A DNA stretch of 8,375 bases. Source: Erysipelotrichaceae bacterium MTC7 (lineage in GTDB: Bacteria > Bacillota_I > Bacilli_A > Erysipelotrichales > Erysipelotrichaceae). This document shows, piece by piece, positions 1 through 8,375 of the stretch (positions are counted from its first letter, which is position 1; each line of letters opens with the position of its first letter). The DNA is taken from the NCBI GenBank assembly GCA_001695645.1, contig LVZN01000028.1:1-8375 (forward strand), written 5' to 3'. Under the pieces are notes generated by a model. The model was not told the origin of the DNA, made no database searches, and saw only the letters and a list, made by a program, of their open reading frames with translations. Both the position numbers and the translations under genes were made by a program.

Positions 1-1
1 C

Positions 2-82
2 TACATCGGCTTTGAAGATGATACGGGCTATTACCACTACAACGTGGATGTAGCCAAACATTATGAAATAGGAGGTACTTAA
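2..82 (+). CDS. 3' end of an upstream phage structural gene (partial, product not identifiable)
   Basis: The frame is open from the window edge (...YIGFEDDTGYYHYNVDVAKHYEIGGT*). TAA at 80-82 lies 1 nt before the major tail protein ATG. Its position suggests a head-tail joining or tail completion gene, but that is positional inference only. Confidence 0.4.
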   Translation, partial: YIGFEDDTGYYHYNVDVAKHYEIGGT

Positions 83-83
83 A

Positions 84-668
84 ATGGCAACAATTGGTCT
101 GGATAAACTTTATTATGCGAACATCACAGATGATGAAAATGGCGAAGAAATCTATGGCACACCCACTCAGCTGGCAAAAGCAATCTCAGCAGAGTTATCT
201 GTTGAACTAGCAGAGGCAACTCTCTATGCAGATGATGGTGCGGCAGAAATCGTTAAAGAATTTAAAAATGGCACTATCTCTCTTGGAGTGGATGATATTG
301 GCTCGACTACTGCAGCCGCCTTAACCGGAGTCACGGTTGATAAGAACAACGTTGTGGTTTCTAACAGTGAAGATGGCGGGAATCCTGTGGCTGTCGGTTT
401 TAGAGCAAAGAAATCCAATGGCAAGTATAAATACTACTGGCTCTATCGAGTGAAATTCGGTATTCCTGCGACAAACCTAGCAACAAAAGGTGACAGCATC
501 ACTTTCTCAACACCAACGATAGAAGGCACGGTTCTTCGAAGAAACAAGCCGGATACAAGCGGCAAACATCCATGGAAAGCGGAAGTGACCGAAGGTGATA
601 AGGATGTACCAGCATCGGTTATCAGCGGTTGGTATACAGAAGTCTATGAACCGGATTACACAGAATAA
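84..668 (+). CDS. major tail protein (phi13/TP901-1-like, Phage_tail_2-type)
   Basis: AGGAGG at 70-75 lies 8 nt before ATG 84. The product is 194 aa. The N-terminal pattern MATIGLDKLYYA...LYADDGAAE and the size match my recollection of the phi13-family major tail protein. The gene sits immediately upstream of the chaperone and tape measure genes, the canonical order. Confidence 0.85.
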   Translation: MATIGLDKLYYANITDDENGEEIYGTPTQLAKAISAELSVELAEATLYADDGAAEIVKEFKNGTISLGVDDIGSTTAAALTGVTVDKNNVVVSNSEDGGNPVAVGFRAKKSNGKYKYYWLYRVKFGIPATNLATKGDSITFSTPTIEGTVLRRNKPDTSGKHPWKAEVTEGDKDVPASVISGWYTEVYEPDYTE

Positions 669-681
669 GGAGGGCTGAGCA

Positions 682-1065
682 ATGGATAACGAACGAACAG
701 CAAGTATTCGTATTGGTGGCGATGAATATGTGCTACTACTTACTACAAAGGCAACAAAGGAAATCGCAGGACGATATGGTGGACTTGAAAACCTAGGCGA
801 TAAGCTAATGAAGTCTGAGAATGTCGAGATGGCACTTTCAGAGATTGTGTGGCTGATTACCTTACTGGCCAATCAAAGTACACTTGTCTATAACATCAAG
901 CACAAGGATGCACCCAAGGAATTACTGACCGAAGATGAGGTGGAAATTCTCACAAGTCCGATTGATTTGGCGGAGTACAAAGAGGCGATTATGAATGCTC
1001 TTTACAAGGGTGCAAAAAGAAATGTACTCAGTGAGGAAAGCCCAAAAAACGCAGTAGCCCCGTAA
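682..1065 (+). CDS. tail assembly chaperone (G-type, zero-frame product, 127 aa)
   Basis: GGAGG at 669-673 lies 8 nt before ATG 682. The gene sits between the major tail and tape measure genes. It ends 13 nt after a canonical -1 slippery heptamer, and an open -1 frame continues downstream. Confidence 0.8.
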   Translation: MDNERTASIRIGGDEYVLLLTTKATKEIAGRYGGLENLGDKLMKSENVEMALSEIVWLITLLANQSTLVYNIKHKDAPKELLTEDEVEILTSPIDLAEYKEAIMNALYKGAKRNVLSEESPKNAVAP

Positions 1066-1253
1066 GTGACGAAGAGTTATTTACGAGGCTTTTATACTAC
1101 GGCATCAGCCTATTACATCTGACCATGGATGAATTTTGGCTGATGCCGTTTGGTTTGCTACTAGACTTGTGGGAGTGCCACAAACAGTATCAGGGGCTGG
1201 CAAAACCAAAAAGAGAGATATTTATCGATGACATTATCCCTGTGGGTATTTAA
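682..1253 (+). CDS. tail assembly chaperone GT fusion made by a -1 programmed frameshift (682-1050, slip back 1 nt, 1050-1253; predicted 190 aa)
   Basis: The -1 frame is open from 1035 to TAA 1251-1253. After the slip it reads RSSPVSDEELFTRLLYYGISLLHLTMDEFWLMPFGLLLDLWECHKQYQGLAKPKREIFIDDIIPVGI (67 codons). This stretch has no plausible independent start or RBS, and the only internal ATG would give about 41 aa. The arrangement matches the conserved G/GT tail-chaperone frameshift of tailed phages. Confidence 0.7.
1044..1050 (+). promoter_or_regulatory. -1 ribosomal frameshift slippery heptamer A_AAA_AAC
   Basis: In the zero frame the codons are cca|aaa|aac (P K N). The heptamer a1044-c1050 fits X_XXY_YYZ, and both tRNAs can re-pair on AAA after a -1 slip. 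It lies 13 nt before the G stop codon. Confidence 0.7.
1099..1149. repeat. perfect 12-bp GC-rich inverted repeat (ACGGCATCAGCC / GGCTGATGCCGT) with a 27-nt spacer
   Basis: Read directly: 1099-1110 is the exact reverse complement of 1138-1149. It lies inside the T segment, about 49 nt downstream of the slippery site, and is followed by TTGGTTTG. Confidence 0.8.
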
Positions 1254-1272
1254 GATGTAAGAAGATAAAATC

Positions 1273-1286
1273 AGTACTTAAGTACT
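1273..1286. promoter_or_regulatory. perfect 14-bp palindrome AGTACTTAAGTACT (candidate operator)
   Basis: The sequence is self-complementary when read directly. It lies 29 nt upstream of the -35 hexamer of the cassette promoter, in the gap after the GT stop codon. Confidence 0.5.
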
Positions 1287-1301
1287 AGCGGGCTCACCTT
1301 A

Positions 1302-1317
1302 ATGTAAAGGAAGCTTG
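1302..1317 (+). promoter_or_regulatory. direct repeat copy 1, ATGTAAAGGAAGCTTG (candidate operator overlapping -35)
   Basis: It matches 1346-1361 at 15 of 16 positions. Its 3' end overlaps TTGACA at 1315-1320. Confidence 0.5.
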
Positions 1318-1343
1318 ACAAGGCAATGGGAATATGTTATTTT
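1315..1343 (+). promoter_or_regulatory. sigma-A-type promoter: -35 TTGACA, 17-nt spacer, extended -10 TGtTATTTT
   Basis: TTGACA is at 1315-1320. TG is at 1335-1336 and TATTTT at 1338-1343. The promoter points into the HTH gene, whose AGGAGG is at 1372-1377. Confidence 0.6.
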
Positions 1344-1345
1344 AT

Positions 1346-1361
1346 ATGTAAAGGAAACTTG
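1346..1361 (+). promoter_or_regulatory. direct repeat copy 2, ATGTAAAGGAAACTTG (candidate operator over the predicted transcription start)
   Basis: It matches 1302-1317 at 15 of 16 positions, with a centre-to-centre spacing of 44 bp. It is followed by TCGACA, echoing the ACA that follows copy 1. Confidence 0.5.
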
Positions 1362-1386
1362 TCGACACAAAAGGAGGGATAGTTGC

Positions 1387-1602
1387 TTGAAAAATAAAGT
1401 AGAAGTGTTACGTAAAGACAAAGGCTTAAGTCAAGAAGAGTTTGCCAAAGAAATTCGAGTTTCAAGACAAACAATAAGTTCCATTGAGACAGGAAAGTAT
1501 AATCCCTCATTAGAACTAGCATTTATCATCTCAAATTACTTTGGGAAAAGGGTAGAAGAAATTTTTATTTATGAAGGAGGTAATAAGAATGAAGAGAAGT
1601 AA
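1387..1602 (+). CDS. XRE/Cro-CI family helix-turn-helix transcriptional regulator (71 aa)
   Basis: It carries a classic HTH_3 motif, LSQEEFAKEIRVSRQTISSIETGKYNPSLELAFIISNYFGKRVEEIF. AGGAGG at 1372-1377 lies 9 nt before the in-frame TTG at 1387. The longer track ORF (1315 start) begins inside the -35 hexamer, so I shortened it. Confidence 0.8.
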   Translation: MKNKVEVLRKDKGLSQEEFAKEIRVSRQTISSIETGKYNPSLELAFIISNYFGKRVEEIFIYEGGNKNEEK

Positions 1603-2032
1603 CTTTATAACTGGATTAGTATCTTTGTTAGTTGGAATGGCGTGTTTGTCTGTTGTACTACTATTTGAGACTAAATTAAATAGCATTTTGAGTGGATTTG
1701 CTGGAGGAGGAATATGTAGTGGTATAGTCATACTGTGGAAATATTACCATTGGACAAAACCAGAAAATAAAAGTAAATATAAAGAAAAGATGGAAAATGA
1801 AAATATTGAATTACACGATGAAAGAAAGGAGATGTTAAGGGATAAAGCTGGTAGATACACCTATCTTTTAGGATTAGTTGTATTAGCCCTATCTATTACT
1901 ATATTTTCCATTCTAGATAGTTTAGAAATTATAAATGATACTCGTTTGATTGTTTTATATCTTGGTGGACTATTATTATTTCAATATATTACAGGAGTTA
2001 TTATTTATAAGAGGCTTAGCAAAAAGTACTAA
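1589..2032 (+). CDS. small integral membrane protein, 4 predicted TM helices (147 aa), function unknown
   Basis: AAGGAGG at 1574-1580 lies 8 nt before ATG 1589. The start overlaps the HTH gene end by 14 nt. Hydrophobic segments are NFITGLVSLLVGMACLSVVLLF, ILSGFAGGGICSGIVILW, TYLLGLVVLALSITIFSIL and LIVLYLGGLLLFQYITGVIIY. They flank a K/E-rich loop, TKPENKSKYKEKMENENIELHDERKEMLRDKAGR. Confidence 0.7.
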   Translation: MKRSNFITGLVSLLVGMACLSVVLLFETKLNSILSGFAGGGICSGIVILWKYYHWTKPENKSKYKEKMENENIELHDERKEMLRDKAGRYTYLLGLVVLALSITIFSILDSLEIINDTRLIVLYLGGLLLFQYITGVIIYKRLSKKY

Positions 2033-2088
2033 GAACTACACTAGATTTTATAGTTATACATCACGTTATAAAATAAATAGTAAATTTA

Positions 2089-2116
2089 GGGGCAATCAAA
2101 AAGGTTGCTCCTTTTT
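2089..2116 (+). terminator. rho-independent terminator
   Basis: GGGGCAATC (2089-2097) pairs with GGTTGCTCC (2103-2111), giving 9 bp including two G-U pairs. The loop is AAAAA and a TTTTT tract follows at 2112-2116. It lies 57 nt after the membrane gene stop and 28 nt before the tape measure start. Confidence 0.65.
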
Positions 2117-2143
2117 CATGTCCATTTTTAAGGAGGTGGTAAC

Positions 2144-4750
2144 TTGGCTGATAATTTTGGCTTGAAAATTGGTCTTGAAGGCGAGAAGGAATTTAAAAAG
2201 GCTTTAACAGACATCAATCGTTCCTTCAAAGTACTAGGTTCTGAAATGAAACTAGTAGCCTCAGAGTTTGATAAAAATGATAAGTCTGTCCAGGCTCTTT
2301 CCGCCAGAAATTCAGTCCTCAATAAAGAGATTGAAATCCAAAAAAGCAAAATTGAAACCTTGAGGTCGGCTCTAGAAAATGCAGCTACCTCCTTTGGAGA
2401 GACCGATAGAAGAACGCAGAACTGGCAGATTCAATTGAACAATGCTGAGGCGGCACTCAACAATATGGAGCGAGAGTTAAGTAACAATAATGCTGCTCTT
2501 GAGGAAGCAAACTCAAACTACGATGATGCCGAAGATGCTCTCGATGACATGAACCGTGAAATGAACGATGTCACTGATAGTGCTGATGATATGGGAAAAG
2601 AGATTGATGAGGCGGCTGACTCCGCTGAAAAATCTGAATCTAAGTTTAAAGGCTTAGGTACAACTCTAAAATCTATCGGCATTGCCATGGGAGCAGTTGC
2701 TGTTGCAGCAGGTGCGGCGGCTGTCAAACTTGGTAAAGAAGTCATTTCCGCCTATGCCGATTACGAACAATTAGTCGGTGGTGTGGATACGCTTTTTAAA
2801 GAAAACTCTCAGCAGTTACAAGACTATGCATCGAATGCCTATAAGACGGCAGGTCTTTCTGCCAATGACTACATGGAAACCGTCACTTCGTTTTCTGCAA
2901 GCCTTATTTCTTCTCTTGGAGGGGATACAGAAAAAGCCGTTAAATATGCGGATATGGCGATTACTGATATGTCTGACAATGCCAACAAAATGGGTACAGA
3001 CATGGAGTCCATTCAAAATGCCTATCAGGGTTTTGCCAAACAAAATTACACCATGCTAGACAATCTTAAGCTTGGTTATGGCGGTACAAAAAGTGAAATG
3101 GAGCGGCTCCTTGCCGATGCCGAGGCTATCTCTGGCATTGAGTACGATGTTTCTTCTTATGCCGATGTAGTTTCTGCCATCCATGTCATTCAAGAAAGCA
3201 TGGGCATTGCTGGTACGACTGCTCTTGAGGCAGAGGAGACTATTTCAGGGTCCTTGAATGCTTTTGAATCTGCTTTACAAAATCTTTTAGTTGGTTTTGG
3301 AAATGCCGATGCGGATATGGAACAACTCAGTAAAAACATGGTGGATGCCTTTCAGTCGGTGGTAAAAAACATTACTCCAGTGATTGAAAATATCGTAAAG
3401 GCCCTGCCCATCGCAATTGAAGCATTATTGGATGCGGTTTCTGATTTGTTACCGACACTGCTTGCTACGGTGACCGATTTATTTACTCAAGTACTGAACG
3501 CACTGATGAGCCTACTACCTACTCTAATACCGGTAGCAGTTGATTCCATCCTTACGATTGTGAATGCCTTGATTGAAAACTTATCACTGCTAGTGGATGC
3601 GGCCGTTCAGTTAATTGCAGCTTTAGTAGATGGTCTTGGGCAAGCAATGCCAGAACTGATTCCTGCGGCAGTTAATGCAATTACTACGATTGTGCAAGGT
3701 TTAGTGGATAATCTACCCATGCTGCTCGACGCAGCACTGCAGTTAATACTTGGTTTGGCTCAGGGGTTTCTCGAGGCGATTCCGCAACTAATTGAGGCTC
3801 TCCCTACGATTATTTTGGCAATCATTGATTTTATTATAAGCGCAATTCCTCAGATTATAGATGCAGGTATTCAGCTATTAACATCGCTGGTTACCGCCTT
3901 GCCTGAAATTATTACGGCTATTGTAGAGGCGATTCCACAGATAATTGATGGAATATTAAATGGGATTTTAAGTTCGATTCCACAACTCATACAAGTGGGT
4001 GTCGACTTACTTGTTGCACTGATTCAAAATCTACCGACCATTATTACCACCATTGTGGCGGCAATCCCTCAAATCATTTCAAGTATAGTAAATGCCTTGA
4101 TTGGAAACATCGACAAGATCATTATGGCAGGGGTTCAGCTATTTGTAGCACTCATTCAGAATTTACCAACCATTGTGGTAGAGATCGTAAAAGCAGTGCC
4201 TCAGATTATTGGCGGCATCGTCAGAGCATTTACAAACTCCATGGGTTCCATCGTGACGGTGGGTGGCAACATTGTAAAAGGACTATGGCAGGGTATTCAA
4301 TCCCTTGCTTCTTGGTTATGGAATAAAGTGAGTGGTTGGATTAGTGGCATTTGGACTGGCATCAAGGATTTCTTCGGTATCAAATCACCATCGAAACAGA
4401 TGGGGTGGGTTGGTGAAATGCTTGTGAAAGGTCTTGCAGGTTCTATCCAAGATAACGGTGATGAGGCTGTGAAAGCGGCTGAGATGATGAGTGAGGATAT
4501 CAACGATGTGATGACCAGTCTTGCCAGCGATATGAGTACATCCTTGCCTACAGACTTTTCAGTGGATACTTCCGTTGGTGGTGTGATTTCAAATGCAGCG
4601 ACCTCTTCCCTAGGTGGTGTCAGTGGATCGCTGGTTACTGTACAGCAGATGATTGTACGAAGTGAAGATGATATCAGAAGGGTATCTCAGGAACTTTATA
4701 ACTTAATTCAGACAGGCTCTCGTGCTCAGGGTCGATTCTCTACAACATAA
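2144..4750 (+). CDS. tail tape measure protein (868 aa)
   Basis: AGGAGG at 2131-2136 lies 7 nt before TTG 2144. The N-terminus is coiled-coil-like (EIEIQKSKIETLRSALE...), followed by an acidic stretch and a hydrophobic segment (IGIAMGAVAVAAGAAAV). A conserved TMP core motif region (YTMLDNLKLGYGGTKSEMERLL) is present, followed by a long Ile/Leu/Pro periodic repeat region and a W-rich C-terminal part with FGIKSPSKQMGWVGEMLVKGLAGS. It is the largest gene and sits after the chaperones. Confidence 0.9.
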   Translation: MADNFGLKIGLEGEKEFKKALTDINRSFKVLGSEMKLVASEFDKNDKSVQALSARNSVLNKEIEIQKSKIETLRSALENAATSFGETDRRTQNWQIQLNNAEAALNNMERELSNNNAALEEANSNYDDAEDALDDMNREMNDVTDSADDMGKEIDEAADSAEKSESKFKGLGTTLKSIGIAMGAVAVAAGAAAVKLGKEVISAYADYEQLVGGVDTLFKENSQQLQDYASNAYKTAGLSANDYMETVTSFSASLISSLGGDTEKAVKYADMAITDMSDNANKMGTDMESIQNAYQGFAKQNYTMLDNLKLGYGGTKSEMERLLADAEAISGIEYDVSSYADVVSAIHVIQESMGIAGTTALEAEETISGSLNAFESALQNLLVGFGNADADMEQLSKNMVDAFQSVVKNITPVIENIVKALPIAIEALLDAVSDLLPTLLATVTDLFTQVLNALMSLLPTLIPVAVDSILTIVNALIENLSLLVDAAVQLIAALVDGLGQAMPELIPAAVNAITTIVQGLVDNLPMLLDAALQLILGLAQGFLEAIPQLIEALPTIILAIIDFIISAIPQIIDAGIQLLTSLVTALPEIITAIVEAIPQIIDGILNGILSSIPQLIQVGVDLLVALIQNLPTIITTIVAAIPQIISSIVNALIGNIDKIIMAGVQLFVALIQNLPTIVVEIVKAVPQIIGGIVRAFTNSMGSIVTVGGNIVKGLWQGIQSLASWLWNKVSGWISGIWTGIKDFFGIKSPSKQMGWVGEMLVKGLAGSIQDNGDEAVKAAEMMSEDINDVMTSLASDMSTSLPTDFSVDTSVGGVISNAATSSLGGVSGSLVTVQQMIVRSEDDIRRVSQELYNLIQTGSRAQGRFSTT
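3515..4240 (+). repeat. in-frame tandem repeat array inside the tape measure gene: 5.5 units of 44 aa (132 bp), with 11/22-residue sub-periodicity
   Basis: Units read directly, for example IPQIIDAGIQLLTSLVTALPEIITAIVEAIPQIIDGILNGILSS, then IPQLIQVGVDLLVALIQNLPTIITTIVAAIPQIISSIVNALIGN, then IDKIIMAGVQLFVALIQNLPTIVVEIVKAVPQIIGGIVRAFTNS (3845-4240). Two more diverged 44-aa units lie at 3515-3778 and a half unit at 3779-3844. Confidence 0.8.
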
Positions 4751-4762
4751 GGAGGTGTGCCG

Positions 4763-5539
4763 ATGGGTTTTTCATATAACGATGTTTCTTCAAAAAGCAT
4801 GGGGCTAAAAGCCAGGCTCACTTCCTGGCAGGTCTGTGGAGGGATGCGTAATTTTACCACCACCGTACCTGGAAAATATGGTGTGACAGACTTTGGGGCT
4901 GATTTTGATTACCGAGAAATCAATGTGGCTTGTAATATCTATCCTAAGCACAGCTTTTCTGCACTGGTGAGTACCCTTGACGAACTTTCATCATGGCTTG
5001 ATCCCATGCAAGGGTTAAAAGAACTTGTTTTTGATGATGTACCAGACAGGTATTTTATGGCAAGGCTGAATGAAAAAGTGGATTGTGAACGACTCATTCG
5101 TTTTGCAGGAAGTTTCAACTTGAAGTTTTTCTGTCCTGACCCTTTTGCTTATGCCATTACGGATGAGCATTATTTAATAGAAAACGAAGGAAGTCACACG
5201 ATTACAAGACAGACCGGTAATGTTGAATCCAATCCTATGTATCGTTTGAAGGGAATCATCGCATCGGGTGTGAACAATTCTATTTCTGTTACAACCAATG
5301 GCTTGGAAATGAAAATTGTAAATGCTGTACTTTTGGCGGAAGAAACACTTGTCATTGATACAGATAAGATGACGGCTTATGTGGAAGACGAAAACGGGAT
5401 AATTTTAAGAAACGCTTTGCCCTACCTAGAGGAGATACAGTTTCCAAGTCTTCATGTAGGCATGAATACCCTAGCAATAACAACGAATAATGCTGTGTTT
5501 ACAGCGCTTGAAATAAAGGCTCGCAGTAGATGGAGGTGA
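4763..5539 (+). CDS. distal tail protein (Dit; siphovirus tail component family)
   Basis: GGAGG at 4751-4755 lies 7 nt before ATG 4763. The track start, GTG 4757, is only 1 nt from the RBS. The product is 258 aa. The pattern ...ELVFDDVPDRYFMARL...FNLKFFCPDPFAYA is typical of the Sipho_tail/Dit family as I recall it. The position directly after the TMP is canonical. Confidence 0.75.
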   Translation: MGFSYNDVSSKSMGLKARLTSWQVCGGMRNFTTTVPGKYGVTDFGADFDYREINVACNIYPKHSFSALVSTLDELSSWLDPMQGLKELVFDDVPDRYFMARLNEKVDCERLIRFAGSFNLKFFCPDPFAYAITDEHYLIENEGSHTITRQTGNVESNPMYRLKGIIASGVNNSISVTTNGLEMKIVNAVLLAEETLVIDTDKMTAYVEDENGIILRNALPYLEEIQFPSLHVGMNTLAITTNNAVFTALEIKARSRWR

Positions 5540-5543
5540 TCCA

Positions 5544-8069
5544 GTGGCACTAAAAACAATTTTAAATAAACAGACAGATTTTACGGGAGAGTTCCCAGTT
5601 GAGTATGCAAAATCTGGACTGTGGCGATTTAATGATGTATCGGTAGATGAATATGGTTATCTTGCAGACTCTTCTGGGTTAGACAGAAAAATAGAGCTTG
5701 TCAATTATCTAGGAACAACTGCAAGCCTTCAAAGCGGGCAAAAAGGGAGACAAATCCGAATCAACATCAACAATCCCGCTACAGAAAAAACCTACCTTAA
5801 AGTGGCCAATGATGGTACGTTCTTTTCTGAAATGGGAGAACGAATCCTTGTTGGCGGTTGGATGATACCGACTACTTATTCGGTGGGAAATACCTATTGC
5901 CCCATATTGAATACGCGCTATGGTCCTGGTCAGCCAATCTTTTACCTGTCGCTCTTTGCAGGCAGACCTAGAATCATGCTTTATAACGCTAGTGGTTCTC
6001 TTATACTCGACCAAACAACCACACCGCCTTTTTCACTTATCAATGGTGGTGTGTATTTTATTTGCATGGTCATAGAGCCAAACAATAAAAACGCATGGAT
6101 TGTACTGGGAGATAAGACGAATGGAACGAGCTGGGTATCTCCGACCTATTCCTTTACAGGCACACTAAACCCTTCTTGTACAGCTGACATCATTATGGGT
6201 ATGCATGCAGATGCTTACTGGTATGCAGGAAGATTTGATGACTGGTTTTTTGATATGGATTCCAGTCTTACAACGGATGAGTTGATTGATTATTTCAATG
6301 GGTCTCTTTTGACTAACGGTGGTGATATGGGCGGTACTGTTGACGCCCTTAGCGTACCGGGAGTGGTGAGCTTAAGGGAAACAGAAGGTATCTATCCAAT
6401 GGAAGGAACACTATATACGGCTCCGGCATCTTGTAATCTGTCTGGCACAGGTCGGGTCTCCGTTACCAGTGAATATATTTCTGGGGTAACTGCAGTTGGA
6501 CAGATAGAAACCTCAACAAGCGATGACCTAGTTCATTGGAGTGATTGGGTAGCCATCGCACTTGATGGAAAACTGGTATCTCCAAATAAGGCATACATTC
6601 GTTTTAGGGTCACACTTACTACCACAGATACGAGTAAGACCCCTCGAATTATTGATATCAGGCTATATGACATTCCAAAGTCACCTTATGAGAGGATTGG
6701 TTTTTCAAGACCGGTCGTACTGGATTCAACTGGAGCCTGGGAGGCTGTGTTAGAAAATGCCTATAACATTGTGGTAACCAGTGAAATCAATGGCGAGGAT
6801 ACGCTCTCCTTTATGATCCCCTACCGTGATCCCAAGCGGGGATTTATTGATAGTGAAAAGAAAATACAGATTGTTGATGACGTCTACAAAGTAAGGACTT
6901 TGACGGATACAAAAGACAGCGAAGGAAATCTAGCGACTGAAGTGTATGCTGAGGCAGAGTTTTATGACCTGACTTTTTCAGTGCGAAAAGAAGAGCATAA
7001 ATTTGATGCAGAAACTGCTGAAGTCTCTATGGCTTATGCCTTAGAAGGAACAGAGTGGAGCGTAGGCACAGTCAATGTGCGAACTAAAAGAACCTGGACG
7101 AGCACAGAAAAGAATGCACTTTCCATCCTTCGCACGGTTGCTGACTTACACGGTGGGGATCTTGTCTTTGATTGCCCGAATAGACTGGTCCATCTCTTAA
7201 CGGTCTATGGTACGGATAGTGGTGCATTGTTCGCCTATAAGAAAAATATGAAGAGCATTAAAAGGGTCGTGGATACCAGAAGTCTTGTAACAAGGCTCTA
7301 TGCCATTGGTAGCGATGGTCTTACTTTTGCAGACATCAATGGAGGAAAGGCATATGTGGAGGACTATACTTATTCGTCTGATATTCGAATATCAACGCTT
7401 GATTGTTCTTCCTTTACCAATCCCTATCAGATGAAAGAATATACCGAGATGAGGCTTGCTCAGTACGCAAAACCCAATATCTCTTATGTTTTAAATGCAA
7501 TGGATTTATCAGTCTTAACGGGTTATGAGCATGAGGCATGGTCGCTTGGCGATTACGTTCATGTAGAAGATAAAGATTTAGGGCTGTCGGTAACCACTCG
7601 TGTCATACGAAGAGAATACAACTTACAAGAACCATGGAATACGGTACTAGAACTATCCACTACCCTTAAAAATCTGGGCAGTTCTGCAAGCCAGTGGGAC
7701 AATGTAGCAGATTCTCTTGAAGGCACAAGTATGGTTACAAACAATGATATCCGTGAAATGGTGCCATTTAATTTATTGCGAAATTCTCGTGGTGATGATG
7801 CGATGGCTTATTGGGTTAACTCAGGCTTTGAAGTAGATGGTGATAACGGTGTGAGCGGTACTGCATCGTTTAAAGCAATGGGTGTAGCAAATATGACAAA
7901 GAGCATGGCTCAGACCATCTATCCAGCGAATCGTTCTAGCTACACGCTGTCGGCACAAATCGCATCTGAAAACCTTGAAAAGCTGAGTAGTAACTCACAG
8001 GTTGGCATCGAAGTGGTTATTGAATATGAAGATGGGACGACAGAAGCAAGGTTTATTGATTTGTATTAA
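5544..8069 (+). CDS. tail-associated baseplate/tip protein (Tal-like) with N-terminal LamG-like lectin-fold extension
   Basis: GGAGG at 5532-5536 lies 7 nt before GTG 5544. Residues ~389-705 (nt ~6710-7660: PVVLDSTGAWEAVLENAYNIVVTSEINGEDTLSFMIPY...VYAEAEFYDL...LYAIGSDGLTF...) match the 'phage minor structural protein N-terminal region / prophage tail endopeptidase' domain. Residues ~90-255 follow a LamG/ConA-like pattern ending in AGRFDDWFFDMDSSLTTDELIDYF. The C-terminus from ~739 (FNLLRNS...) looks like the first half of a beta-sandwich binding module. Confidence 0.8.
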   Translation: MALKTILNKQTDFTGEFPVEYAKSGLWRFNDVSVDEYGYLADSSGLDRKIELVNYLGTTASLQSGQKGRQIRININNPATEKTYLKVANDGTFFSEMGERILVGGWMIPTTYSVGNTYCPILNTRYGPGQPIFYLSLFAGRPRIMLYNASGSLILDQTTTPPFSLINGGVYFICMVIEPNNKNAWIVLGDKTNGTSWVSPTYSFTGTLNPSCTADIIMGMHADAYWYAGRFDDWFFDMDSSLTTDELIDYFNGSLLTNGGDMGGTVDALSVPGVVSLRETEGIYPMEGTLYTAPASCNLSGTGRVSVTSEYISGVTAVGQIETSTSDDLVHWSDWVAIALDGKLVSPNKAYIRFRVTLTTTDTSKTPRIIDIRLYDIPKSPYERIGFSRPVVLDSTGAWEAVLENAYNIVVTSEINGEDTLSFMIPYRDPKRGFIDSEKKIQIVDDVYKVRTLTDTKDSEGNLATEVYAEAEFYDLTFSVRKEEHKFDAETAEVSMAYALEGTEWSVGTVNVRTKRTWTSTEKNALSILRTVADLHGGDLVFDCPNRLVHLLTVYGTDSGALFAYKKNMKSIKRVVDTRSLVTRLYAIGSDGLTFADINGGKAYVEDYTYSSDIRISTLDCSSFTNPYQMKEYTEMRLAQYAKPNISYVLNAMDLSVLTGYEHEAWSLGDYVHVEDKDLGLSVTTRVIRREYNLQEPWNTVLELSTTLKNLGSSASQWDNVADSLEGTSMVTNNDIREMVPFNLLRNSRGDDAMAYWVNSGFEVDGDNGVSGTASFKAMGVANMTKSMAQTIYPANRSSYTLSAQIASENLEKLSSNSQVGIEVVIEYEDGTTEARFIDLY

Positions 8070-8081
8070 GGAGGTGGATTG

Positions 8082-8279
8082 GTGGCTTATTTTTCAAGAA
8101 CATCAGAAAAGATACTCCCAGAAAGCTACTCTTCAAAAGTAAAATCCATTACCATCCGTGTCTGTGTCACAAATTGCACAGGCACTTTTTATATTACGGA
8201 TCTCTTTTTACAAGCAGGGTCAGTAGTCACGGGATGGGTAGGTCATCCCTGTGAAATAAGGTGGACGTTAGATGGCTAA
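8082..8279 (+). CDS. small ORF (65 aa) in the same frame as the preceding Tal gene; possibly the detached C-terminal part of its last domain
   Basis: GGAGG at 8070-8074 lies 7 nt before GTG 8082 (the track uses TTG 8079). The frame is identical to 5544-8069, interrupted only by TAA 8067-8069. The ending ...GTFYITDLFLQAGSVVTGWVGHPCE resembles the terminal strands of phage receptor-binding beta-sandwich modules. Confidence 0.5.
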   Translation: MAYFSRTSEKILPESYSSKVKSITIRVCVTNCTGTFYITDLFLQAGSVVTGWVGHPCEIRWTLDG

Positions 8280-8375
8280 GGTTAAATTTATAAGGTTAGC
8301 AGAAGTCATAAATAAAAAACAAGATAAGCGTGTCATGAGTGTAAGCATAAAACCTACCCTCTATGATTGCACTGG
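8272..8375 (+). CDS. 5' end of a downstream gene (partial, unknown product)
   Basis: ATG 8272 overlaps the upstream stop (ATGGCTAA). AAGGTGGA at 8258-8265 is a plausible RBS. The frame is open to the window edge (MAKVKFIRLAEVINKKQDKRVMSVSIKPTLYDCT...). It is too short to identify. Confidence 0.4.
   Translation, partial: MAKVKFIRLAEVINKKQDKRVMSVSIKPTLYDCT

Follow-up and report, generated by a model that had tools for sequence, protein, structure and literature searches.

The DNA analyzed here, an 8,375-nucleotide stretch (positions 1 to 8,375 of contig LVZN01000028.1 from Erysipelotrichaceae bacterium MTC7, referred to throughout as the window), holds the tail module of a temperate siphophage of the Javan630/phi1605 type. 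Between the tail assembly chaperone gene and the gene for the tape measure of that module lies an AT-rich cassette of two genes, one for a small XRE/Cro-C1-type helix-turn-helix (HTH) regulator and one for a membrane protein with four transmembrane (TM) segments. The cassette, at positions 1254 to 2130, is a genuine insertion of foreign origin. It reproduces in full a two-gene module that many Clostridia chromosomes carry. We consider it probable that it is a moron, acquired horizontally in a 17-bp spacer between the two phage genes and acting by the mechanism proposed below. It has several features that characterize a moron, namely extra DNA where genes otherwise abut, divergent composition, and a promoter and terminator of its own, both recognized in silico; expression from the repressed prophage would be a further one. 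An initial annotation of the window had proposed just such an autonomous insert, and the empty site in related phages, the compositional break, the dedicated promoter, operators and terminator, and the transfer across phage lineages bear this out strongly.

Filled and empty sites

The evidence for insertion comes from phages in which the site is empty. Streptococcus phage Javan630 and Erysipelothrix phage phi1605 align to window positions 1-1242 and 2130-8375 with 94-96% identity, and in both only 17 bp lie between the stop codon of a 42-amino-acid open reading frame (ORF) in the T frame of the chaperone and the start of the tape measure gene. Because these relatives match both flanks with 17 bp between them, the insert can be delimited to approximately 1254-2130. 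The site is likewise empty in 10 of the 10 long contigs shown that encode an identical chaperone G protein, and the flank comparison suggested as a check in the initial annotation thus recovered the empty site. The right junction falls at the tape measure ribosome-binding site (RBS, 2131-2140). On the left, the T frame of the window ends in four codons that differ from those of the empty-site phages. Of the limits first given for the insert, 1254 and 2143, the left one stands, whereas the right one takes in the RBS that is shared with the empty-site phages and has to be withdrawn accordingly.

Across the assembly collection, the identical G protein occurs in 828 blocks and the identical membrane protein in 27, every one of them at this site; the prophage is thus very common, and the filled allele accounts for only a minority of it, roughly 3%. 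The composition of the insert, its chromosomal homologues in Clostridia and the ratio of 828 to 27 speak against an ancestral insert that the other phages have deleted, and the tails that most close relatives make without the cassette speak against a function in virion assembly. Related tail modules do not all share these genes at normal composition, a situation that had been named at the outset as incompatible with insertion; they carry the empty site, and the insert is AT rich. Its G+C content is 30.6% (1254-2130), compared with 43.5% in positions 1-1253 and 42.5% in positions 2131-8375, and the G+C content at third codon positions is 22-25% in both cassette genes, compared with 37-41% in the tail genes.

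A module of Clostridia chromosomes

The nearest homologues outside phages are encoded on the chromosomes of Paratissierella (78% amino acid identity) and Alkaliphilus (73%), and the family extends through Clostridia and their relatives, including Hathewaya, Desulforamulus, Lachnospiraceae, Oscillibacter and a few Erysipelotrichales. The XRE gene lies directly upstream of the membrane protein gene in 99 of 103 loci, in most of them with the same geometry as in the window. DNA homology to the chromosomal loci runs from approximately position 1300 to the stop codon at 2032, and the promoter region is therefore part of the module; a leader of 48 nucleotides (1254-1301) and the segment that holds the terminator (2033-2130) are confined to the phage copies.

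The chromosomal settings are varied, with two-component and ABC modules nearby in Paratissierella and a CAAX protease neighbor in Alkaliphilus. Among 150 neighbors of 53 diverse loci, 158 different Pfam families are represented, no phage structural family is found, and defense functions are not enriched, the PADLOC matches being mostly to generic ATPase-type models. For these loci, the diversity of the families and the generic nature of the PADLOC matches speak against chromosomal copies that reside in defense islands or prophages.

Many mouse and human gut genomes of Lachnospiraceae, Clostridia and Erysipelotrichales share near-identical copies of a single variant of the pair, with 54% identity to the window protein (loci L037, L039-L042, L049, L052-L055, L057, L077-L079, L081 and L093). 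The copy at L093 adjoins a MatE gene and a Tn916-type integrase fragment, which suggests that this gut variant is carried on another mobile element.

Movement between phages

The cassette occurs at the same site in prophages of Clostridium sp. cel8 and of a Thermotaleaceae metagenome-assembled genome (MAG), where its ORFs are 96-97% identical to those of the window at the nucleotide level, while the tail genes share 53-72% nucleotide and 53-76% amino acid identity. Identity rises close to the junctions, reaching 80-84% over the adjacent 50-150 bp of the chaperone and tape measure genes compared with 53-65% further out. In window-type variants whose backbones have diverged by approximately 3.5%, 654 aligned cassette coding bases contain 0 differences. 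Because the cassette remains 96-97% or fully identical while the backbones diverge, with the junction flanks at 80-84%, it moves between tail operons by recombination through these flanks. In addition, a pair that is 63% identical is found in an unrelated viral contig, between baseplate/tail-fiber genes and a GH25 endolysin gene. This, too, is a classical site for morons, and the pair was captured there independently.

The regulator and its control region

The upstream gene encodes the 71-amino-acid XRE HTH regulator described in the initial annotation, with the start and length set here from gene calls on identical contigs. The protein matches HTH_3 (PF01381) with 64.3 bits against a cutoff of 23, and its closest solved relative is a 65-amino-acid PbsX-family regulator (PDB 9k3w; E = 2.4e-16, 57% identity), for which no literature was found. 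It also aligns with the cytolysin repressor CylR2 of Enterococcus faecalis (1utx; E = 4.6e-12, approximately 47% identity over residues 3-62). As a bare HTH domain without any extra domain, it fits the minimal CylR2-like subgroup of 65-71 amino acids, and its ratio of nonsynonymous to synonymous substitution rates (dN/dS) of 0.08-0.24 indicates purifying selection. Its matches in PADLOC-DB v2 are to generic HTH and control-protein models only, and its similarity to the antitoxin models Y4mF, HigA and HipB is weak and below threshold (at best 36.2 bits against a cutoff of 71.65). The likeness to CylR2, which did not feature in the initial annotation, opens the rival possibility of a membrane sensor acting on a repressor.

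The promoter is the best match of a promoter scan, agreeing at 10 of 12 positions and including the TG, and its position is kept in 76 distinct homologous upstream regions, in which the -10 element mostly reads TATAAT or TACAAT. What had been seen as operator-like repeats resolves into two direct repeats, each an 18-bp palindrome (O1, 1303-1320; O2, 1347-1364), that bracket the -10 element. The family operator can be written as TGTAAAGG-NN-CCTTGACA, with a right half of CCTT(G/T)(A/T)CA (CCTTKWCA), and two copies are present in almost all of the 76 upstream regions. An operator-like pattern occurs 3 times in the window, where chance would produce 0.21 matches, and the motif expressed as a regular expression gives 203 matches at most 160 nucleotides upstream of XRE genes and 1 elsewhere in 1.05 Mb of flanking DNA. 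The motif is absent from the rest of the window and from the 48-kb Javan630 genome, which speaks against regulation of other phage genes by the cassette. Judging from this footprint of the repressor at its own promoter, the pair is almost certainly autorepressed. At the other end of the cassette, the intrinsic terminator also holds up in silico, as a 10-bp hairpin followed by a T-run in a 111-nucleotide region with a fold z of -3.7.

Some loci depart from this arrangement. In the Thermotaleaceae MAG (L011, 5700-5800), a deletion of 44 bp runs exactly from O1 to O2 and removes the promoter, with both genes left intact; it looks like recombination between the operator repeats, an assembly artifact also being possible. 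Oscillibacter-type loci (L064, L065, L069, L075, L076, L083, L085 and L087) have three operator copies rather than two, together with a GC-rich GGCCGC spacer, and so present a variant promoter architecture. The phage-specific leader contains a perfect 14-bp palindrome that has no counterpart in the chromosomal homologues and is conserved in the second phage lineage (L011 and L012). A significant RNA structure at this palindrome is ruled out, as its fold is not significant, and it might instead be a binding site or a recombination scar.

The membrane protein

The second gene is translationally coupled to the first through a 14-nucleotide overlap and encodes, as initially described, a protein of 147 amino acids with four hydrophobic segments in its hydropathy profile. 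By the positive-inside rule, both termini are predicted to be cytoplasmic, as is a charged loop of 37 residues between TM2 and TM3, in which D77, E78, R84, G88 and Y92 are invariant. An AlphaFold2 model is all helical, with a predicted local distance difference test score of 89.4. The protein has 78 close homologues of 45-93% identity, and a profile search of 1.84 billion representatives returned 437 clusters at 50% identity. The 150 clusters listed are small stand-alone proteins; nearly all are approximately 147 amino acids long or are shorter fragments, and none has a large extra domain or a fusion that would reveal function. The dN/dS is 0.17-0.52 overall and 0.17-0.19 in comparison with chromosomal relatives, so that this gene, too, is under purifying selection.

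Searches of Pfam, NCBIfam, PHROGs and PADLOC with the membrane protein gave nothing significant; its single match in PADLOC-DB v2 (E = 0.009, 13.8 bits) is insignificant, the family scans contain no toxin family match, a profile search of the PDB gave no match at E <= 10, and Foldseek comparison of the model with the PDB and BFVD gave chance helical matches only (E > 0.6). With generic HTH models for the regulator and one insignificant match for its partner, PADLOC agrees with the earlier view that the pair is not a named defense system. A confident match to a housekeeping or virion-assembly function, which had been named in the initial annotation as grounds to abandon its hypothesis, did not appear for the membrane protein in the family scans. 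Precomputed tables assign PF09946 (DUF2178) to the identical protein and to most homologues, and UniRef names one relative a DUF2178 protein, whereas in a local Pfam-A scan PF09946 is matched neither by the window protein (E <= 10) nor by 16 family members (E <= 0.01), the family giving only weak, sub-threshold matches to DcuC, DUF6773 and DUF6442. This discrepancy looks like a difference between model versions.

Proposed mechanism and a possible role in phage exclusion

In the mechanism that we propose, a dimer of the XRE protein would bind both O1, which overlaps the -35 hexamer, and O2, which lies over the transcription start, and the unit would thereby repress itself. Autorepression would hold both proteins at a low, buffered level in the prophage, independently of the silent late operon, and the terminator would keep cassette transcription out of the tape measure gene, while during lytic growth the late transcript would have to read through the cassette. 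The membrane protein would then be the payload, located in the cytoplasmic membrane with both of its ends and the conserved charged loop facing the cytoplasm. The benefit in the phage setting could be a membrane function, expressed in the lysogen, that hinders genome entry of incoming phages in the manner of HK97 gp15. By analogy only, and tentatively, exclusion or defense would be the most likely benefit of this kind.

The analogy is one of position and layout. In phage HK97, the frameshifted chaperone (gene 13/14) is followed by gene 15, annotated as a moron product, then by a terminator and the tape measure gene. The product of gene 15, gp15, resides in the inner membrane, acts in superinfection exclusion and has chromosomal homologues, the YebO proteins. 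The cassette occupies exactly the same slot in the same order of G/GT chaperone with -1 frameshift, moron, terminator and tape measure gene. Like gene 15, it is autonomous, differs in composition from its surroundings, encodes a small inner-membrane protein and has homologues that are mostly chromosomal rather than prophage-borne. There are also differences. The two membrane proteins have no sequence relationship (hhalign probability 0.4%), gp15 consists of 62 amino acids and stands alone whereas the cassette pairs its 147-residue four-TM protein with a dedicated repressor and operators, and the host clade of the cassette is Gram-positive. While gp15 has diverged from YebO, the cassette copy keeps all residues that are invariant in its family. 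Finally, exclusion is proven for HK97 gp15, whereas for the cassette it would be a role assigned by analogy.

A second precedent is offered by the lactococcal Sie2009-type and Streptococcus thermophilus Ltp genes, whose products are expressed from the prophage, associate with the membrane and block DNA injection, the phenotype that the initial annotation had put forward. These genes belong to the lysogeny module, and their products are either proteins with a single anchor or lipoproteins, a good part of which is extracellular (PMC3952083). By description they are set apart from the cassette protein, which has outer loops of approximately 8-10 residues, is encoded in the tail operon and comes with its own repressor. 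Model libraries, PADLOC and Foldseek gave no family-model or fold match of the membrane protein to exclusion or defense proteins, the Sie2009 and Ltp sequences themselves not having been compared.

Several observations weigh against a moron that protects its lysogen. Most members of the family reside in ordinary chromosomal contexts with no enrichment for phage or defense genes, and the ancestral role of the pair is therefore not specific to prophages. The same varied, non-phage and non-defense neighborhoods also reduce the value of position as evidence, the pair being mainly an ordinary module of Clostridia chromosomes. Only approximately 3% of the close relatives of this phage carry the cassette, no homologue is found in any of the GenBank phages in the collection, and one carrier (L011) has lost the promoter. 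At the level of the protein, extracellular loops of approximately 8-10 residues would offer little surface to an incoming tail tip, and the phage copy, with all family-invariant residues retained, gives no sign of neofunctionalization. No sequence or fold likeness to exclusion or defense proteins emerged from PADLOC, the PDB, Foldseek against the PDB and BFVD, or the comparison with HK97 gp15, and no literature was found on DUF2178.

Alternative readings

The foremost alternative, though a rather unlikely one, is a switch in the style of CylR1/CylR2. Here, the four-TM protein would respond to a signal from the membrane or from outside the cell (a peptide or envelope stress, for example) and alter the hold of the repressor on O1 and O2 through its conserved cytoplasmic loop. 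The output could be the membrane protein itself, as a protective protein under feedback control, or distant host genes with the same operator, and the phage copy would modulate host physiology or engage in cross talk with a chromosomal paralogue rather than exclude phages. Several features favor it. Both systems have a minimal XRE protein (66-71 amino acids) and the two proteins are approximately 47% identical (E = 4.6e-12), next to the 57% identity to the 65-residue PbsX-family regulator. In both, the repressor gene is tightly coupled to a gene for a small polytopic membrane protein, CylR2 being co-transcribed with the abutting CylR1, a small three-TM protein required for signaling. CylR2 binds an inverted repeat between promoter and RBS, and the cyl regulatory promoter has such a repeat, TTGTCAAGTG-T-CACTTGACAA, just ahead of the RBS, with a half-site resembling the TGTmAAGG of the cassette family. 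As the cassette regulator consists of nothing but an HTH domain, it would depend on a partner for any input, and an operator that is almost invariant across the family would permit cross-regulation between copies.

Other points argue against such a switch. CylR1 (three TM segments, 94 amino acids; comparison sequence taken from a plasmid) and the cassette protein (four TM segments, 147 amino acids) are not homologous (hhalign probability 0.3%, BLASTP E = 1.5), and the gene order is reversed. CylR1/CylR2 has a divergent target operon, whereas the cassette has none: within approximately 6 kb of the 103 loci the operator motif is found only at the promoter of the module itself, no second operator-bearing target was found in the 48-kb genome of the empty-site phage, and the neighbors, including any adjacent target operon, are not conserved. 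The operators differ in layout as well: the cassette has two of them, at a spacing of 44 bp, and the gap within each is 2 bp between half-sites, compared with 3 bp in the cyl repeat.

A comparable organization is known from YoaS-YozG operons, which pair a DUF2975 membrane protein with a small Cro/C1-like HTH repressor and have upstream inverted repeats that have been read as autoregulatory operators. They likewise form two-gene units of small HTH repressor and small membrane protein, and their upstream repeats lend some further weight to the switch. The membrane protein families are different, that of the cassette matching DUF6442/DUF6773 weakly and below threshold, and the YoaS-YozG operators are described as diverse in sequence, whereas the operator of the cassette family is almost invariant. 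The module belongs to a loosely recognized class of operons in Bacillota that join a small HTH repressor to a small membrane protein.

Next in order of plausibility, and likewise rather unlikely, is a broader reading. The CylR2-like XRE and four-TM pair, with its near-invariant double operator, might be an unrecognized, self-contained membrane module of Clostridia, serving either in phage exclusion or defense or as a membrane-to-DNA switch that works without a phosphorelay. Protection or reprogramming of the lysogen would then be the reason for its repeated capture by temperate phages at classical moron sites.

More doubtful again is a unit resembling toxin-antitoxin systems or abortive infection, in which the membrane protein would be harmful when overproduced, for example, by membrane depolarization, and would be repressed by the XRE protein. 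Once repression is relieved, by phage infection or because the element is lost, the cell would die or become arrested. Such a unit would be in keeping with several traits typical of toxin-antitoxin systems: the antitoxin gene comes first and overlaps the next, the operators are palindromic and autoregulatory, and the genomic settings are scattered and variable. The weak, sub-threshold similarity of the regulator to Y4mF, HigA and HipB models would fit as well. These scores lie far below the cutoffs (36 bits against 71.65), however, and a regulator of 71 amino acids leaves no room for a toxin-binding domain. In addition, purifying selection acts on the membrane protein (dN/dS 0.17-0.19 in comparison with chromosomal relatives), its length is uniform (approximately 147 amino acids) in nearly all full-length relatives listed, PADLOC gave no match of note, and the promoter-deleted carrier L011 keeps both genes intact.

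The least probable of these readings is a neutral or selfish passenger. Such a cassette, of no benefit to phage or host, would have arrived through illegitimate recombination, and its short flanks would have let it spread by homologous recombination. The minority status of the filled allele (27 versus 828 blocks) and the absence from all GenBank phages searched would agree with this, as would the adjoining parts of the chaperone and tape measure genes, approximately 50-150 bp, that travel along (80-84% identity versus 53-65% further out). Against it, no copy has a disrupted ORF, dN/dS is below 1 for both genes, and the cassette has kept its promoter, operators and terminator. Moreover, two diverged phage lineages maintain the same cassette, and a relative has been taken up independently elsewhere, again at a classical site for morons.

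Implications

What gene 15 of HK97, the archetypal moron, is to its phage finds a clean Gram-positive parallel in the cassette, in the same slot between chaperone and tape measure genes, and as filled and empty alleles both exist in nature, its effect is directly testable. To the initial annotation, our analysis adds the donor family, the operators, the relationship with CylR2, the positional precedent in HK97 and the evidence for transfer between phages, and it draws attention to an unstudied module of 437 clusters for which repressor, operators and promoter can now be precisely stated. A membrane protein that blocks DNA entry would represent a new exclusion family for phages of Clostridia and Erysipelotrichia; if it instead signals to the repressor, the pair would offer a tractable system related to CylR1/CylR2, whose mechanism still lacks an explanation. 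Should neither be true, the cassette would still be a well-documented case of cargo exchange between phage tail operons.

The surrounding tail module

The features of the window are collected in Table 1. Positions 682-1253 can reasonably be read as a G/GT chaperone with a programmed -1 frameshift, because the -1 frame relative to G is open at 1035-1253 and a slippery heptamer, A_AAA_AAC, is located at 1044-1050 in the G frame, 15 nucleotides ahead of the G stop codon. The chaperone context assumed in the initial annotation is thus retained. In public annotations of this region, only the 42-amino-acid ORF is called.

Table 1. Coordinates of the cassette, its control elements and the flanking tail genes in the window
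Feature	Position	Strand	Remarks
Major tail protein	84-668		Siphophage tail module
Tail assembly chaperone G, 127 amino acids	682-1065	+	phrog_2115 tail protein, E = 6.5e-27
T (-1) frame of G/GT chaperone	1035-1253	+	phrog_10988, E = 7.6e-21
42-amino-acid annotated ORF inside T frame	1125-1253	+	
Inserted AT-rich cassette (probable moron), approximately 877 bp	1254-2130	+	
Perfect palindrome, 14 bp, AGTACTTAAGTACT	1273-1286	.	In 48-nucleotide cassette leader
Operator O1 (putative), TGTAAAGGAAGCTTGACA	1303-1320	+	Right half is the -35 hexamer TTGACA
Sigma-70/A-type promoter	1315-1343	+	-35 TTGACA 1315-1320, 17-nucleotide spacer, extended -10 TG-n-TATTTT 1335-1343
Operator O2 (putative), TGTAAAGGAAACTTGTCG	1347-1364	+	Between -10 and RBS, over expected transcription start
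XRE/Cro-C1-type HTH regulator, CylR2-like, 71 amino acids, TTG start	1387-1602	+	RBS GGAGG 1373-1377
Four-TM membrane protein, 147 amino acids	1589-2032	+	14-nucleotide overlap with XRE gene; AGGAGG 8 nucleotides before ATG
Intrinsic terminator	2088-2117	+	G+C-rich 10-bp stem, 5-nucleotide loop (2088-2112), then TTTTT
Tape measure RBS, AAGGAGGTGG	2131-2140	+	Common to empty-site phages
Tape measure gene, 868 amino acids, TTG start	2144-4750	+	phrog_58, E = 3.7e-125
Dit	4757-5539		
Tal-like protein	5544-8069		

In carriers of the cassette, the tape measure gene starts with TTG 6 nucleotides past the RBS core (window 2131-2146), compared with an ATG at longer spacing in the empty-site phages (L001/L002, 4257-4274), and the cassette terminator now lies 18 nucleotides upstream of the tape measure RBS. 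The insertion may have changed translation initiation of the tape measure gene.

In three metagenome contigs (L006, 11097-12529; L008, 7522-9008), a 106-amino-acid ORF and a DUF2800/PDDEXK_1 protein follow the tape measure gene in place of Dit and Tal, and these contigs represent either a mosaic phage or a chimeric assembly. Records from Streptococcus uberis and Erysipelothrix rhusiopathiae contain the phage backbone itself at 94-96% identity, with the exact cassette proteins recorded under Erysipelotrichaceae bacterium MTC7, and the Javan630/phi1605-type backbone spans bacterial classes. At 42-47 kb, Javan630 also carries three serine recombinases together with genes of the ant(6) and ant(9) types for resistance to aminoglycosides and spectinomycin.

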